NCBI GenBank assembly: GCA_035459145.1
Contig: DATHYN010000168.1
Location: 11,058-75,057, forward strand
Direction of reading: 5' to 3'
DNA: 64,000 nucleotides
DNA from: Anaerolineae bacterium
Lineage (GTDB): Bacteria; Chloroflexota; Anaerolineae; Promineifilales; Promineifilaceae
Numbering within the stretch: position 1 is the stretch's first letter; each line of letters opens with the position of its first letter. Below, piece by piece: positions 8,859-55,233 of the stretch. The position numbers and the translations under genes were made by a program. The notes under the pieces are model-generated. The model did not search any database. It saw only the letters and a list, made by a program, of their open reading frames with translations, and had not been told where the DNA came from.

Positions 8859-8873
8859 ACAAGTTATATTTGC

Positions 8874-9012
8874 AGAGAATGAAGCCGAAATAAAGGTGAT
8901 TTTAGGAGTGGATCCCCGCTTTCGCGAGGATGACAGCCCTGATCGGGCTGTAAATGGTTGTTGACATAAGAAAAACGGACAGCATCTTCGCAGGTATGAC
9001 AACCGAGGATGT
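8874..9012. repeat. Copy 1 of the composite intergenic palindromic repeat element, REP/MITE-like
   Basis: The sequence gaatgaagccgaaataaaggtgattttaggagtggatccccgctttcgcgaggatgacagccc...aaaaacggacagcatcttcgcaggtatgaca aligns to 17405-17540 and shares the core with 55128-55220 and 58611-58665. Confidence 0.7.
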
Positions 9013-9018
9013 TTTTTA

Positions 9019-9053
9019 AAAGAGGGCGTTGTCTTCACCGGCAACGCCCCTCT
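9019..9053. terminator. Bidirectional intrinsic terminator hairpin between convergent genes
   Basis: The sequence aagagggcgttg-tcttcaccg-gcaacgcccctctt is a perfect 12-bp stem flanked by A/T runs on both sides. Confidence 0.6.
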
Positions 9054-17223: not shown

Positions 17224-17404
17224 AAAAACTCCTTGTTTTTGTTTGCTAGCAATAGATTATTCGCCAACTATTGCGATTTGATAGTTTTATTAAATGGGGA
17301 TGAAAGGGTGGCGCGTTGCGATAACGGCCGTTTTTCATAGCCTAGCACTTACTATAAAAAATGGAATGGTTCAGAATTAACTTTACAAATGAGGATGGGC
17401 TTTG

Positions 17405-17540
17405 CTGAGAACGAAGCCGTAATGAAGGTGGTTTTAGAAGTGGATTCCGGCGTAAGCCGGAATGACATGTTCGAGGATTGCGTCGGTAATTGTAAAAACG
17501 GACAACATATGCGCAGGAATGACAGCCCTCAGTAAGGATT
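17405..17540. repeat. Copy 2 of a composite intergenic palindromic repeat element, about 135 bp and REP/MITE-like
   Basis: This copy is about 70% identical to 8874-9012. The stem-loop is gtggATTCCGGC-gtaa-GCCGGAATgaca. A second unit aaaaacggacaacat...gcgcaggaatgacagccc follows. Confidence 0.7.
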
Positions 17541-17697
17541 GTGATTTTGTAAAGTGATTTGTATAAACCATTCTTATTTTATTTGTTGTAAATAGTTGTG
17601 TGAGTAATTTATCAATCTGGCAATAATTGATAACGACTGACGATCCTATTGTACAAAATTTCACGAATGGTGTAAAGGGGTACTAAGGTACTATGTC

Positions 17698-17728
17698 AGG
17701 TAGTGCGATTTAACAAATCGCACTACCT
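17698..17728. other. Perfect 14-bp inverted repeat immediately 3' of the glutamate synthase operon. It is a terminator-like hairpin.
   Basis: The sequence aggtagtgcgattt-aac-aaatcgcactacct lies 4 nt after the stop of the 861-aa gene. Confidence 0.5.
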
Positions 17729-28134: not shown

Positions 28135-29958
28135 ATGGAAGATGGCTTAGTTGGTCGCCGATTGGCGAATTATCGCATTGAGAGATTATTGGGTCAAGGG
28201 GGGATGGCTCAAGTATATTATGGTATTGATGAGAGTTTGCATCGTCCGGTGGCGATCAAGGCGATTGATTCGCGTTGGGGGCATCGGGAGACGTACATTC
28301 AGCGTTTGATTCAAGAAGCGCGGTCAATGGCGACATGGCGTCATGAGCATATTTTGCAGGTGTATTATGCGGGGCAAGAAGAGTATCTGTATTATTTTGC
28401 TATGGAGTATATTGACGGGCTTAATTTAGAGCAATCATTGACAGAGTATGGCGCGCGTGGGCAGTTAGCACCACAAGATGATGTATTGAACATTGGGGAG
28501 GCGGTAGCGTCTGCGTTAGATTATGCGCATGAGAAAGGGGTGGTACATCGGGATATAAAGCCGTCTAATGTGATGATTGCGAAAGATGGGCGGGTGGTAT
28601 TGGCGGATTTCGGGTTGGCGATGGATCAGCAGAGAGGGTCGTTGGGGGAGACGTTTGGGTCGCCACATTATATAGCGCCGGAGCAGGCGCGGAGCTCAGC
28701 GGCGGCGGTAGCGCAGTCGGATTTGTATGCGTTGGGGGTGATTTTGTATGAGATGTTAACGGGGGTGGTACCGTTTGATGATCCGTCACCGATGAGTATT
28801 GCGTTGATGCATTTGACAGATGCGCCACCATCGCCGCGGCAACTGAATCCGCGGTTGAATGAAGCGACGGAAGAGGTGTTGTTGAAGGCGTTGAGCAAGG
28901 AGCCTGAGGATCGGTATCCGTCGGGGGAGGCGTTAATGGAGGCGTTGCGGGAGGCGTTGGCTGAAGGGGAGATGGAGCCGGAGGTGCCGACGGAGTTGCC
29001 GCCGATGCCAACGGCCGTTTCAACCCCCTATGCGCGGCCGGTATCGCAGATGTCGATTGTGGATTTGGTGATGTTGCAGGCCGAGGCGGGTGTTGATTCT
29101 TTTTCGAACTTACCAAAAGTAGCCACGTCGAATAGTGTTATGAGGGAAGAGTTGCCCCGGTTGCCGGCGAGTGTGGTGACACCTGATCAAGGGCAAAAGC
29201 GGCAACAACGGTTTATCTATGGGGCTTTGGTCGGTTTGGTGTTGGTTGCTTTGTGTGGGGTGGTGTGGTTTATTCTTAATCCTGATCTTTTTATTCAAGT
29301 GGTTGATCCCACGCCGACATCGACGCCAACGACGGCGCCAACGCGGCAGCAAATTGTGGATGTGTCTTCCCCAACGGTAACGGCATCGGCCACACCGATT
29401 CCGGTGCCTAAAATCACACGGTTGACGCCAACTAACACACCAACCTTAACACCGTCGCCGTCGCCGACGGCGACGCCTGTGCCACCAACGCGGACACCAA
29501 CACCGACAAAGGTAACGACGCCGACAGCGACACCAACGGCGACACCCGTTACTGAAGGGCAACAGGTATTATTGTTATACAATGATTATAGTTTTTATCT
29601 ATTAAATTTAAGCGAAGATATCATCACGCCTAATTTATTGGTTTTAGAAGCGATTGATAATAGTACGGGAGATGGTACTAATTATCTATTTCCAGGGAAT
29701 CAATGGTCCCGTTTCTTCCCGCAAATTGATCCGGGGTATTGTGGCGGCATTGAGCCGGTTGAATCACCAGCCTTTCGTTTGTTGCGACCAACACAGTGTA
29801 CGGGATTTAATGCGATTGTGACCCCTGGGACAGACAATGAGTTGGTCTTTTGGATAGCGCGTGAGAATGTTGATCAGTTTCGTGCGTTGTGGCGCGGTCG
29901 TGAAGTGGGACGTTGTGATAGCCAAGTATCCGTTTGCGAAATATTTTTACCAGAATAA
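28135..29958 (+). CDS. Hanks-type serine/threonine protein kinase with one transmembrane helix, a Pro/Thr-rich linker and an unknown extracellular Cys-containing domain
   Basis: The glycine loop LGQGGMAQVY is present with AIK. The catalytic loop reads HRDIKPSN and DFG reads DFGLA. APE is present. The transmembrane segment is LVGLVLVALCGVVWFIL. TPTPT repeats follow. Confidence 0.9.
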   Translation: MEDGLVGRRLANYRIERLLGQGGMAQVYYGIDESLHRPVAIKAIDSRWGHRETYIQRLIQEARSMATWRHEHILQVYYAGQEEYLYYFAMEYIDGLNLEQSLTEYGARGQLAPQDDVLNIGEAVASALDYAHEKGVVHRDIKPSNVMIAKDGRVVLADFGLAMDQQRGSLGETFGSPHYIAPEQARSSAAAVAQSDLYALGVILYEMLTGVVPFDDPSPMSIALMHLTDAPPSPRQLNPRLNEATEEVLLKALSKEPEDRYPSGEALMEALREALAEGEMEPEVPTELPPMPTAVSTPYARPVSQMSIVDLVMLQAEAGVDSFSNLPKVATSNSVMREELPRLPASVVTPDQGQKRQQRFIYGALVGLVLVALCGVVWFILNPDLFIQVVDPTPTSTPTTAPTRQQIVDVSSPTVTASATPIPVPKITRLTPTNTPTLTPSPSPTATPVPPTRTPTPTKVTTPTATPTATPVTEGQQVLLLYNDYSFYLLNLSEDIITPNLLVLEAIDNSTGDGTNYLFPGNQWSRFFPQIDPGYCGGIEPVESPAFRLLRPTQCTGFNAIVTPGTDNELVFWIARENVDQFRALWRGREVGRCDSQVSVCEIFLPE

Positions 29959-29981
29959 CGGCGTTAAAAGATATTTTTTTG

Positions 29982-30647
29982 ATGGACTTAGCTTTTCAAC
30001 ACAAGTGGGATATTACAGCCGAAGAGGCCAAACAGTTGCAAATCGAGTTAGCTAGCCGGGTGGTTAGGCGTGATATGGTGGGGACAGTTCGTTATGTTGC
30101 TGGTGTCGATGTTGCTTTTTTTGACGAGGGGCGTATATCACAGGGAGCGGTTGTGGTTTTATCGTGGCCTGAGTTGCAAATTGTGGCGCAGGAGGTAGCT
30201 CGCCAAGAGACAACTTTTCCGTATGTGCCTGGCTTTTTATCTTTTCGAGAAGTGCCTGTTTTGCTGGCCGCATTAGCCAAGCTAGAGCAAGTACCGGATT
30301 TGATTTTGTGTGACGGGCAGGGAGTGGCTCATCCACGGCGGTTTGGGTTAGCGTGTCATTTAGGGGTTTTAACAGATATAGCGACAATAGGTGTGGCCAA
30401 AACTCGTTTTATTGGTGTGCATGAAGAGGTGCCGGTAGCACGTGGGAGTTCGGTTCGTTTAGTGGATAGTGGTGAAGAGGTGGGGCGAGTGGTGCGGACA
30501 CAAGCTGGGGTTCGTCCTTTGTATGTGTCTGTAGGGCATAAGGTGTCGTTGGAAACGGCCGTTACGTATGTTTTAGGATGTGCTCCCCGTTTCCGACTCC
30601 CAGAAACAACGCGCCAAGCAGATCGCTTGGCACGCATAAGATTATAG
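29982..30647 (+). CDS. nfi: Endonuclease V, the deoxyinosine 3' endonuclease
   Basis: Conserved blocks match E. coli Nfi: MDLA...VAGVDVAFF, PYVPGFLSFREVP, DLILCDGQGVAHPRRFGLACHLGVLTDIATIGVAKTRF. Confidence 0.9.
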   Translation: MDLAFQHKWDITAEEAKQLQIELASRVVRRDMVGTVRYVAGVDVAFFDEGRISQGAVVVLSWPELQIVAQEVARQETTFPYVPGFLSFREVPVLLAALAKLEQVPDLILCDGQGVAHPRRFGLACHLGVLTDIATIGVAKTRFIGVHEEVPVARGSSVRLVDSGEEVGRVVRTQAGVRPLYVSVGHKVSLETAVTYVLGCAPRFRLPETTRQADRLARIRL

Positions 30648-48376: not shown

Positions 48377-49471
48377 TTGAGGATGTGTATGACAGTACAA
48401 ACGCCACATGATCACTTTTTTTATCAAAGTTTTAGTCGTGTTGATATTGCCCGCAATTATTTAGAGGAGTATTTGCCAGATGATATTTTGCCTTTATTTG
48501 ATTTAGTTTATCTTGAGTTGGAGCCAGATAGTTTTGTTGATGAAGAATTACGTAAACATCAATCTGATTTATTGTATCGGACGAAGTTAGCAACTGGTGA
48601 GGAGGCTTATTTTTATTTTTTATTTGAGCATAAGAGCTATAATGATCTGTTAGTGGCTTTACAATTGTTGCGATATATGGTTCGTTGTTGGGAAAGGCAG
48701 GAAACAGAGCAAGTTGCACTTGTGCCTATTTTTCCAATTGTAATACATCATGGTCCGCAGAGGTGGCGTATTCCATTGACATTTGCTGCACTTTTTGAGG
48801 TGCCTACGCCATTGATTGGTTATCTACCTGATTTTCGTTATCATCTTACAGATCTTTCTTATAAATCCGATGAAGATATTCGGGGGCGTATTTGGTTACG
48901 AGTTATTTTTGCGATTTTACGGGCTATTTTTAACCCGCAATTGCGGCATGAACTAGATGAGTTAATAGGACTTGCATTTCAATTACAAAGACAACCAACC
49001 GGACTGGATTTTATCCGCACAATTTTGTATTATTTAGCTAAAGCAACTGGTAAGGTAGATGCTAGAGATTTACAGAAAGCTGTTTTAAAACAAGGTCAAC
49101 AAGGAGAGACAGTTATGAAAACAATTGCTGAACAATGGAAAGATGAAGCGAGAGAAGAGGTGAGGGAAGAGGTGAGGGAAGAGATGAGGCAGTTGGCTGA
49201 AGAGTGGATGAAAGAAGCACGTCAACAAGGATTGGAGCAGGGATTGGAGCAGGGATTGGAGCGGGGGGTATCCAAGGGGCGCCAAGAAGGGCGGGAAGAG
49301 GCGTTACAGCAAGTAGGGTGGCGTTTGTTGAGTACGTTTGAAGTGGCGCAGGTGAGTGAATTGATGAATGTACCTGTGGAAAAGGTTGTTAAGTGGCAAA
49401 AGCAGTTGGCAGAAAAACAAAAAGCGGCTAATAATGAGGATATTGACTCAAGTAACAATAATGGTGGCTAA
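48377..49471 (+). CDS. Rpn (YhgA-like) family PD-(D/E)XK recombination-promoting nuclease, or putative transposase
   Basis: The N-terminal TPHDHFFYQSF matches the Rpn PHDxxFK motif. ELEPDSFVD...LYR...YFYFLFEHKS resembles the PD-(D/E)XK core. A C-terminal EEVREEVREE...GLEQGLEQGLERG repeat tail follows. The locus is distinctly AT-rich compared with its flanks. Confidence 0.68.
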   Translation: MRMCMTVQTPHDHFFYQSFSRVDIARNYLEEYLPDDILPLFDLVYLELEPDSFVDEELRKHQSDLLYRTKLATGEEAYFYFLFEHKSYNDLLVALQLLRYMVRCWERQETEQVALVPIFPIVIHHGPQRWRIPLTFAALFEVPTPLIGYLPDFRYHLTDLSYKSDEDIRGRIWLRVIFAILRAIFNPQLRHELDELIGLAFQLQRQPTGLDFIRTILYYLAKATGKVDARDLQKAVLKQGQQGETVMKTIAEQWKDEAREEVREEVREEMRQLAEEWMKEARQQGLEQGLEQGLERGVSKGRQEGREEALQQVGWRLLSTFEVAQVSELMNVPVEKVVKWQKQLAEKQKAANNEDIDSSNNNGG

Positions 49472-53137: not shown

Positions 53138-54517
53138 ATGATGAGTAGTCGAGAAGTGGTGCGTCAAGGTGGTCTATTAGGTCTTGATAATATCCGAGCG
53201 ATTGGACAAGATGGATTGATTTCGTTTTTAATGAAGGGGTGGCAAGAGCATGGTGATTTTTATGAGGTGAAGTTGGGGCGTCAACTCACATATGTCGTTA
53301 CACATCCAGATTATGTGCATCATATGGCGTTGGGGCATGGGGACATATATGGGAAGGGGCGTACTTATGAGCCGGTTCGCAAATATTTGCTGGGGGATAG
53401 TATTGTGCCCACGGATGGTGATGTATGGCAGTGGCAGAGACGGATGTTGGCACCATTTTTTACGCCACGGGCGGTAGGGCGTTATGCACAGATGATGGTG
53501 GATGAGTCACAGAAGTTGTTGGGGCGGTTGCAAATGGTGGAGGGGAATGTGGTTGATATGAGTGAAGAGATGTTAAAAGTGGCATCGGGGATTATTCTAC
53601 GCTCTATTTTTGGGATGGAACGAGAGCATCAAGCCCAAGTTTTAGCTGATGTGAATAGAATGATTCGGTATACATCGACGCGGATGTTTCCTTTTGTGAT
53701 GCCAGATTGGGTCCCTACTGAGCAGAATAGCCAGTATTGGGAAGCTAGGGAGCGGTTGCATACGTATATCAAAAGGGTGATTGCGGAGAGGGAGCAGATG
53801 GAGCAAGCAGATTGGCCCGATGATTTGTTATCGCAAATGTTGGTGGCGCGGCAGGATGAGGAGTGGGTGGAGATGACAGATGATATGTTGATTAATGAGA
53901 GTTTATCTTTGTTTATTGCGGGGCATGAGACGACGGCGCGGACAATGGCGTTTACGACGTATTTGTTGTCGAAGAATGAGGAGGCTGAGAGGCGGGTGGT
54001 GGCCGAGGTGGCCTCTGTTTTGGGCGGGAGGTCATTAGTAGATGCGCCGTTGACGGTTGATGATTTAAAGCGAATGCCGTATTTGTTGCAAGCGATAAAA
54101 GAGACATTGCGATTGTATCCGACGGTGGTGGCGATTACACGGGATGTGTTTAAAGATGATGAGATTGATGGGTATCAGCTAAAAGCAGGCAACCGGATGA
54201 TGATGTTTGCTTACGGGACTCATCGGCACCCCGATTTTTGGGAAGAGCCAGAAGCATTCCGGCCGGAACGGTTTGAGCCAGAGGCGGAGCAAGAACGGCA
54301 TCCGTATGCTTATTATCCGTTTGCGGTGGGGCAACGGGTGTGTGTGGGCAACAATTTTGCTTTGTTGGAGGCACAGATTGTGTTGGCGATGTTGTATAGT
54401 CAATATCGGCCGCGTTTGTTAGCGGGTCATGATCCACAAATCAAGATGTTGGGGACGGTTGTGCCGACCAATGGGATGCCGATGCAGATTAATCCGGTGA
54501 CGTTAGCAGTTCGATAA
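53138..54517 (+). CDS. Cytochrome P450 monooxygenase
   Basis: The heme loop reads FAVGQRVCVGNNFALLEAQ (FxxGxRxCxG). The EXXR motif ETLR is present. The AGHETT oxygen-binding motif is present. Confidence 0.9.
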   Translation: MMSSREVVRQGGLLGLDNIRAIGQDGLISFLMKGWQEHGDFYEVKLGRQLTYVVTHPDYVHHMALGHGDIYGKGRTYEPVRKYLLGDSIVPTDGDVWQWQRRMLAPFFTPRAVGRYAQMMVDESQKLLGRLQMVEGNVVDMSEEMLKVASGIILRSIFGMEREHQAQVLADVNRMIRYTSTRMFPFVMPDWVPTEQNSQYWEARERLHTYIKRVIAEREQMEQADWPDDLLSQMLVARQDEEWVEMTDDMLINESLSLFIAGHETTARTMAFTTYLLSKNEEAERRVVAEVASVLGGRSLVDAPLTVDDLKRMPYLLQAIKETLRLYPTVVAITRDVFKDDEIDGYQLKAGNRMMMFAYGTHRHPDFWEEPEAFRPERFEPEAEQERHPYAYYPFAVGQRVCVGNNFALLEAQIVLAMLYSQYRPRLLAGHDPQIKMLGTVVPTNGMPMQINPVTLAVR

Positions 54518-55055
54518 TGGTTTTGTTACCGGTTGCTTGAGCGAGATCGGCAACTGTTTGTCCGCGCATATTTTGGTAGGTGAAGTCAGGTTCAGTATTG
54601 TGTAGATACCATTTGATGAGAGCGAGATGCTCTTGGTGGGTGGCGGTCATGAGAGCATTGGTAATGCCGGTGCGCGCACCTTGTTGCCAAAGGTATTCGG
54701 TCACGGCGACGTCACCATTCCAGGCGGCGTGGGCGAGGAGGCTGATTTGATGAGCGCCGACATCATGGATTTTTTGGGGGTCGGCCGCGAGGATTTTTTG
54801 GAGGGTGGCGAGGTCGCCGAGGGTGGCGGCTGTGGGAATATCGAGGGGGGCACCTAGCGAGAGGAGATAGCGAATCATAGCGGTTTGCCCAGTATGGGCA
54901 GCGGCTTGGATGGGGGTTTCGAAATCATTTTCTCGCCATTGGTGGGGCGCGTTGTAGAGGTGAGGGGCGACGGCGAGAAGGCGTTTTAGTTGAGGGAAGT
55001 CGCCGTGGGCGGCAAGGACGATTTCCTTTATTTGTTCAGGAGGGGCATTTTTCAT
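54489..55055 (-). CDS. Ankyrin-repeat protein
   Basis: Repeats are present, as in TPIQAAAHTGQTAMIRYLLSLGAPLD and ISLLAHAAWNGDVAVTEYLWQQGA. The start is assigned to the ATG at 55055. The tracker's N-terminal extension reads through the intergenic tandem repeat as SFLRLLSFLRLL. The gene overlaps the convergent P450 gene's 3' end by 29 nt. Confidence 0.75.
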   Translation of the reverse strand: MKNAPPEQIKEIVLAAHGDFPQLKRLLAVAPHLYNAPHQWRENDFETPIQAAAHTGQTAMIRYLLSLGAPLDIPTAATLGDLATLQKILAADPQKIHDVGAHQISLLAHAAWNGDVAVTEYLWQQGARTGITNALMTATHQEHLALIKWYLHNTEPDFTYQNMRGQTVADLAQATGNKTIIELLTSPD

Positions 55056-55127
55056 GGTAGGGATACTCCGATTAACAAGTGGATTGTAGGATTGTAATAA
55101 CCTCAAGTGGGATGTGTTGTCTATTGC

Positions 55128-55220
55128 AAGTTTATAAGTGGATTCCTGCCTCCGCAGGAATGACAATAGTCGCAGGAATGACAATAGTCGCAGGAATGAC
55201 AACAGTCTGGGTTATTTATG
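55128..55220. repeat. Copy 3 of the REP/MITE-like palindromic repeat, with a 3x tandem 18-bp unit
   Basis: The stem-loop ttataagtggATTCCTGC-ctcc-GCAGGAATgaca is followed by (cgcaggaatgacaatagt)x3 and gtctgggttattta. Confidence 0.7.
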
Positions 55221-55233
55221 TTATACAAAATTG

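Follow-up and report, generated by a model that had tools for sequence, protein, structure and literature searches.

Background

Among the described tagged palindromes, those closest to the repeats reported here are the CGTC-tagged REPs. In family CGTC-1 one end carries an unpaired CGTC tag (often TGTC; CCTC is also allowed), the stem comprises 8 bp of which the first two are A-T pairs, the loop has 4 nt and the tail fits CCA (Di Nocera 2013, PMC3733652). The family includes dRS3 of Neisseria and RPE-6 of Rickettsia, reaches high copy numbers in a genome, chiefly in gaps separating unidirectional or convergent ORFs, and is usually arranged as head-to-head dimers, which is a tendency, singletons being described as well (PMC3733652).

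The Neisseria sequence NTS (consensus CGTCATTCCCGCGMAVGCGGGAATCYRG) is bound and cut as single-stranded DNA only, and on that strand only (Chenal 2025, PMC11893778). The enzyme, SsnA, is a 94-aa single-domain GIY-YIG nuclease which cuts a few nucleotides 5' of the tag; its recognition is dependent upon both sequence and structure, the key nucleotides being GTC just 5' of the palindrome for cutting and C just 3' of it for binding (PMC11893778). Since NTS37 starts 6 nt before and NTS28 3 nt after the cleavage site (PMC11893778), we read the cut as probably lying 3 nt 5' of the tag. In Neisseria, the process affected by Ssn is the recombination of incoming transforming DNA (PMC11893778). Related motifs in other genomes, SRM, are retrieved with the search sequence HGTCWYN(0-2)YYVSBRHN(0-5)WNVSBRGN(0-2)RNCYNB (Chenal 2025, PMC11893778); 19% of the SRM-rich genomes are reported to lack a SsnA homologue (PMC11893778).

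Results and discussion

Four tagged hairpins

The frame GGATYCC-N10-RGRATGACA has exactly four matches in the window, that is, the whole 64-kb stretch of Anaerolineae DNA analysed here (positions 1-64000). All are on the + strand (8910-8935, 17442-17467, 55140-55165 and 58621-58646), against a chance expectation of 0.22 per window in dinucleotide shuffles, and four matches were reached in 0 of 100 shuffles. The original prediction of four intergenic sites with a common frame is borne out by this count, and the four-repeat observation is real. On the + strand every site reads GTGG-AT(T/C)CC-NNN-loop4-NNN'-GG(A/G)AT-GACA; on the - strand this becomes TGTC, an 8-bp stem starting with AT, a 4-nt loop and CCAC, again in all four copies (Table 1). 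Single-strand folding likewise gave an 8-bp stem and a 4-nt loop for each copy. A frame-free scan of the window, in which GTC had to be followed by a hairpin (stem 7 bp or longer, loop 3-6) and next by C, recovered the same four sites together with three background hits at shuffle level, and no other tagged palindrome rose above background in that scan.

The A1 stem, also written ATCCCCGC/GCGAGGAT, contains one mismatch at stem position 5, which is C.A on the + strand and G.T on the - strand, and its outer arm is altered as well; the other three stems are all perfect. The inner stems and loops are present in four different versions, the loops of A2 and B1 deviating from the usual GMAV. As the stem sequences differ yet pair within each copy, the differences at stem positions 3 and 6 are compensated, which agrees with the expectation that each copy keeps its own complementarity.

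Table 1. Positions and structure of the tagged hairpins, orphan half-sites and long units in the window
Feature	Position	Strand	Stem pair, position 3	Stem pair, position 6	Description
Hairpin A1	8908..8935	-	C-G	C-G	TGTC-ATCCTCGC-GAAA-GCGGGGAT-CCAC; one G.T in stem; fits published SRM pattern
Hairpin A2	17440..17467	-	T-A	G-C	TGTC-ATTCCGGC-TTAC-GCCGGAAT-CCAC; outside published SRM pattern
Hairpin B1	55138..55165	-	T-A	T-A	TGTC-ATTCCTGC-GGAG-GCAGGAAT-CCAC; outside published SRM pattern
Hairpin B2	58619..58646	-	T-A	C-G	TGTC-ATTCCCGC-GCAC-GCGGGAAT-CCAC; fits published SRM pattern
Orphan half-site in A1	8989..9001	-			Tag plus one arm, CGCAGGTATGACA
Orphan half-site in A2	17512..17524	-			CGCAGGAATGACA
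Tandem array in B1	55153..55206	-			Three 18-nt units (CGCAGGAATGACAAYAGT)
Long unit A1	8870..9010	+			35-nt conserved left flank, hairpin, variable spacer, block AAAAACGGACARCAT..CGCAGGWATGACA
Long unit A2	17401..17545	+			Homologue of A1
Long unit B1	55077..55224	+			Two decayed AGTGG(A/G) tail-like motifs, hairpin, half-site array, GTCTGGGTTATTTA
Long unit B2	58559..58672	+			Homologue of B1 without the tandem array

Genomic placement

One of the gaps holding the four sites is convergent, three are unidirectional and none is divergent. Unit A1 starts 12 nt past the stop codon of a PIG-L deacetylase gene, the next relative of which is 61% identical and not syntenic (L118), and it precedes a separate terminator-like hairpin at 9024-9049. 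Unit A2 lies between two - strand genes, and 24 nt separate the end of unit B2 from the start codon of a FIST-domain gene at 58696. Unit B1 is situated between the stop codon of a gene for a 110-aa protein (55234) and the start codon of an ankyrin-repeat gene (55055). Mechanical ORF calling had over-extended the latter into B1 (54489-55202, - strand); the gene probably begins with the ATG at 55055. Since the resulting ORF 54489-55055 is a real ankyrin-repeat gene, the third site lies between two - strand genes and not in a convergent gap. The extension is spurious: it translates the 18-nt array as LLSFLR three times over. The hairpin at another locus (L051) likewise yields a spurious peptide, 'WIPAFAGMT'. 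As the hairpins explain ORFs of the LLSFLR type, their masking is advised in gene calling.

No ssn gene was found in the 64-kb window, either by tblastn (best E = 1.5) or by a Pfam search of all called genes, and the approximately 41 window genes include no Y1/RAYT transposase and no IS110-type gene. The sole gene of mobile-element type in the window codes for a YhgA-like putative transposase (48377-49471, + strand; Pfam Transposase_31, 5e-52); it lies about 5.6 kb from the nearest hairpin copy and adjoins none. A miniature mobile element (MITE), which the original prediction had offered as one reading, is not supported: terminal inverted repeats are lacking, and no transposase adjoins the copies. 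Nor was any convincing target-site duplication seen, no flanking duplication being common to units A and B.

The window has two further repeats that bear no relation to the tagged hairpins. One, a perfect inverted repeat of 14 bp whose loop is 3 nt (17698-17728), directly follows the stop codon of a - strand gene for an 861-aa protein; the other, a second dispersed intergenic repeat of 60 nt, rich in GGATTT(T), has two copies with 87% identity (44178-44237 and 58254-58313), the second located about 250 nt upstream of unit B2. Neither tRNA nor tmRNA genes were found in the window.

Comparison with CGTC-1 and other tagged repeats

The window copies were compared with CGTC-1 feature by feature. 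All four carry the TGTC variant of the tag on the - strand, the 8-bp stem opening with two A-T pairs and the 4-nt loop (A1 with one G.T), and a CCAC tail. Their location in unidirectional or convergent gaps fits the placement of the family. With only four copies visible in the 64 kb, the high copy number typical of the family is not apparent. A departure concerns the head-to-head dimers, which predominate in CGTC-1; there are none in the window, where 0 of 4 copies have an inverted partner hairpin, against 43 of the 127 listed instances from other genomes.

The likeness to NTS and SRM is also close. In a comparison of NTS with a window copy (TGTCATTCCCGCGCACGCGGGAATCCAC), the layout of tag, stem, loop, stem and tail is shared, and the sequence is nearly the same in B2, the copy nearest to the Neisseria consensus (CGTC ATTCCCGC GMAV GCGGGAAT CYRG in NTS, TGTC ATTCCCGC GCAC GCGGGAAT CCAC in B2). 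The window copies are intergenic and dispersed, the key nucleotides (GTC before and C after the palindrome) are kept in all four, and the motif flanks ssn genes in related phyla. Two of the four copies match the SRM search sequence, against 0.26 expected per window, and the two which fall outside it differ only in the inner stem (GGC/GCC and TGC/GCA). The TGC/GCA variant, as found in B1, abuts ssn genes at two other loci (L101 and L106). On the other hand, the window tag is TGTC and not CGTC, the tail is CCAC and not CYRG, and the copies are singletons with orphan half-sites instead of clusters round genes, with no ssn gene in the window.

Two other groups of repeats offer partial parallels. 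As in the Neisseria NIMEs (repeat segments bounded by dRS3), the hairpins lie inside longer modules which recur with different neighbours; unlike the NIMEs, each module was seen in two copies only, and no relatives were detected outside the window. With the REP, BIME and REPIN elements of enterobacteria and Pseudomonas they share the character of short tagged extragenic palindromes that form single-stranded DNA hairpins, and a repeat-gene-repeat arrangement round a cognate enzyme is known in both systems. Those elements, however, have a GTAG tag and a Y1 HUH transposase (RAYT) where the present family has a GIY-YIG nuclease, and no RAYT is associated here.

By this fit the hairpins belong to the CGTC/TGTC-tagged REP superfamily, and in it to family CGTC-1, which is the same sequence family as dRS3, NTS and SRM; we consider the whole reading, in which an Ssn nuclease would act upon them, likely. 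The "REP/BIME-like" option raised at the outset has therefore held up, in the form of the CGTC/TGTC-tagged REPs. Since the family is already described and very widespread, the window repeats add one more, unremarkable case, from the genome of an uncultured member of the Anaerolineae. Their value is mainly one of annotation, in that an Anaerolineae MAG contains the same tagged single-stranded DNA hairpins that many other bacteria carry, Neisseria and Wolbachia among them.

The motif and ssn genes in other genomes

In a collection of species-representative genomes, the outer frame GTGGATTCC-N10-GGAATGACA was found in at least 117 genome stretches, spread over about 20 phyla among the matches listed. 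At least 20 of the listed stretches are from Chloroflexota, and at least three of these are labelled Anaerolineae or Anaerolineaceae. The notion that the core frame might have no further copies is decisively dismissed by these matches. The three inner stem pairs, which were not fixed by the search, are all Watson-Crick in 113 of the 127 listed instances; with shuffled 3' partners the mean was 43 and the maximum 59 of 127 (1000 trials). Among these 127 instances, pair 6 is C-G in 89, T-A in 26, G-C in six and A-T in one. A structural constraint on the hairpin across many phyla is strongly supported. Selection on RNA or DNA secondary structure had been proposed from the window alone; selection for a hairpin stands, with covariation in more than 100 genomes, and the published partner acts on single-stranded DNA, not on RNA (PMC11893778).

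Ssn-like ORFs, matching Pfam GIY-YIG at 1e-13 to 1e-17, are present in 8 of the 117 listed stretches, in six cases no more than 65 nt away from the motif; one ssn-like gene (L060) has the motif on both sides. Another ssn copy (L051) contains an in-frame stop. When 150 ORFs located within 120 nt of the motif were compared with Pfam, no family except GIY-YIG had more than two members. With a Chloroflexota Ssn as query, at least 7835 clusters were found at E<=1e-15, the proteins being about 95 aa in length and 65-75% identical across phyla. Such identity between very distant phyla suggests frequent horizontal transfer together with the flanking hairpins. In two Chloroflexi MAGs (L130 and L131) the ssn genes are bordered on both sides by TGTC-tagged hairpins (TGTCATTCCCG.GRAA.CGGGAATCCAG upstream and CTGGATTCCCAATC.AGTTGGGAATGAC downstream); this repeat-ssn-repeat layout is the architecture reported by Chenal 2025 (PMC11893778). 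Chloroflexota thus joins the phyla in which the hairpin and its GIY-YIG partner co-occur.

The exact hairpin frame was also observed in ten viral contigs (IMG/VR, L120-L129), with the palindromes mostly intact and none beside an ssn gene.

Long units and orphan half-sites

The hairpins are embedded in two types of longer unit (Table 1). Two copies had been thought to be long and to possess a second hairpin unit. The length is correct, units A1 and A2 aligning over about 140 nt, but the supposed second hairpin is an orphan 3' half-site: CGCAGGWATGACA is found at 8989 and at 17512, and the matching 5' arm is absent. The 3' flank GTCTGGGTTATTTA, noticed earlier as common to two copies, is indeed shared by B1 and B2, and the homology is wider, extending to about 55 nt upstream of the hairpin. 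This upstream stretch includes two extra AGTGG(A/G) motifs which resemble decayed hairpin tails. No match to the flanks of units A and B was found in the fetched loci, where nhmmer profiles matched the core hairpin only, and a scan of JGI metagenomes with the unit A flank AAGGTGNTTTTAGNAGTGGATYCC gave one chance hit, inside a coding region, and no further long unit. Units A and B look like lineage-specific mosaic modules built round the hairpin.

The left module of unit B contains, on the - strand, a sigma-70-like promoter sequence, TTCCCA-17-TACAAT in B2 (58566-58594), with an equivalent promoter-like match in B1 (ATCCCA-19-TACAAT, 55084-55114) located 23 nt from the ankyrin gene. We rejected the promoter reading of this module: it is a consensus match only, which aims at the ankyrin gene in B1 and at no gene in B2.

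Orphan half-sites accompany three of the four copies. In the B1 array, the first unit is the 3' arm plus tag of hairpin B1 itself and the other two are orphan arm-plus-tag copies. Read in the NTS sense, what this array repeats is the 5' arm together with the tag and the 6 nt that precede it; were the Neisseria mapping to apply here, the repeated segment would hold the predicted cut site. We infer that the orphan half-site arrays arose as local duplications of a segment that takes in one arm with its tag as well as the predicted cut site. A complete hairpin followed by tandem orphan GGAATGAC half-sites about 17-19 nt apart, as in B1, was also seen in a member of the Bdellovibrionales (L071, at 2039-2130 and 2324-2385), in Sedimentisphaerales of the Planctomycetota (L105), in a MAG labelled Eggerthellales (L111) and in Patescibacteria (L052). 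In the available text of PMC3733652 and PMC11893778 we found no mention of such hairpin-plus-half-site arrays, which may bear on how CGTC-type repeats multiply. The Bdellovibrionales locus has in addition an intergenic microsatellite near its hairpins, consisting of about 30 copies of the 8-nt GATGTAAC (1407-1643).

Possible function and alternative explanations

By analogy with Neisseria, the copies in this Anaerolineae genome may work as Ssn targets. The hairpin would fold when the - strand becomes single-stranded. It would then be bound in this folded state by an Ssn nuclease, whose gene would lie in another part of the genome, and be nicked a few nucleotides 5' of the TGTC tag. The outcome might be a modulation of processes which pass through single-stranded DNA, for example the recombination of incoming DNA or events linked to replication. 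As there are four different inner stems and loops, and SsnA recognition is sequence dependent, some of the copies may not be substrates.

The hairpins might instead be inert relics, either decaying remnants of a past expansion or horizontally acquired, with no enzyme acting on them now. The mismatch and altered outer arm of A1, the unusual loops of A2 and B1, the decayed tail-like motifs and orphan half-sites round the copies and the want of an ssn gene in the window are all consistent with this. Yet tag and tail are intact in all four copies, and three of the four stems are perfect despite a very strong strand-specific bias in substitutions, under which G+C palindromes ought to decay, so that we regard it as unlikely that they are mere relics. 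Another possibility is that the element acts in RNA, as hairpins which stabilise or process mRNA or with units A and B as small-RNA genes. All four gaps are probably transcribed (A1 as a 3' UTR before a terminator, the others as inter-cistronic or 5' leader sequence), many REPs have been argued to be transcribed (Di Nocera et al., PMC3733652), and the folds of units B1 and B2 surpass those of shuffled sequences (z of -2.3 to -4.1); unit A, however, folds no better than shuffles. SsnA, moreover, is reported not to bind RNA (PMC11893778). Rfam 15 gave no match at gathering score in the whole window, and at E<=1 the four sites gave chance-level matches only, to FtrB (24 bits, gathering score 66) and HOTAIR_2. 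The orientation of the copies is 2:2 relative to transcription but 4:0 on the DNA, which does not favour an RNA gene family. The hairpins also lack a T-run; we rejected intrinsic terminators on this ground, A1 being followed by its own separate terminator-like hairpin. The small-RNA gene family admitted by the original prediction is thus not supported, and a role at the RNA level in general appears unlikely.

Mobilisation of the copies by a RAYT would be a further explanation: GTGG directly precedes the stem in all four copies on the + strand and, with the palindrome, could be read as the GT[AG]G head of a REP or REPIN spread by a Y1 (HUH) transposase encoded elsewhere. An inverted partner no more than 80 nt upstream, a REPIN-like doublet, is present in 43 of the 127 listed instances from other genomes (34%). 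Against this, GTGG is simply the CCAC tail, a defining feature of CGTC elements, as seen from the other strand, the window has no Y1 transposase, and CGTC REPs are stated by Di Nocera et al. (PMC3733652) to have no dedicated RAYT. Among the 150 ORFs near the motif it is GIY-YIG that recurs, no transposase family being among the 25 families listed for them. We consider mobilisation by a RAYT very unlikely, and retain the reading of the hairpins as CGTC-1 repeats acted upon by Ssn.

A bolder extension of the Ssn reading would have the hairpins locked to one DNA strand, with the Ssn-cleavable sense always on the C-rich strand, and would read the half-site arrays as traces left when Ssn nicks were repaired by slippage or template switching. 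Should the extreme G>C skew of the window mark the leading strand, the C-rich strand would be the one less exposed as lagging-strand template. In each of the four copies and each of the four orphan half-sites, it is the non-cleavable sense that lies on the G-rich + strand; for four independent copies p = 0.125, which proves nothing. In other genomes, 111 instances had no bias of motif orientation relative to local GC skew (55:56). We hold this extension to be very doubtful, and the link of the half-site arrays to Ssn nicking is speculation. If true, it would provide a long-missing mechanism for the duplication and spread of CGTC-type REPs, and would imply orientation selection against self-cleavage during replication. 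Given the extreme strand bias, the orientation of the hairpins relative to replication direction is a point of interest.

Base composition and other features of the window

The base composition of the window is more unusual than the repeat. Over positions 1-64000, G amounts to 33.6% and C to 17.0%, and GC skew lies between +0.18 and +0.43 in every 4-kb bin, whatever the orientation of the genes. To our knowledge, this is far beyond the values usual in bacteria. At third codon positions the skew amounts to +0.69 for genes on the + strand and to -0.71 for those on the - strand. In 105 other fetched loci that were 4 kb or longer, absolute skew had a maximum of 0.20 and a median of 0.04, and the nearest relative (L118) has a skew of 0.07. 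The window includes a gene for endonuclease V, an enzyme for the repair of deaminated bases (29934-30647). It also codes, at 41290-43803 on the - strand, for an 837-aa bacterial homologue of the major vault protein of eukaryotes, with Pfam MVP_shoulder (9e-28) and Vault_3 domains.
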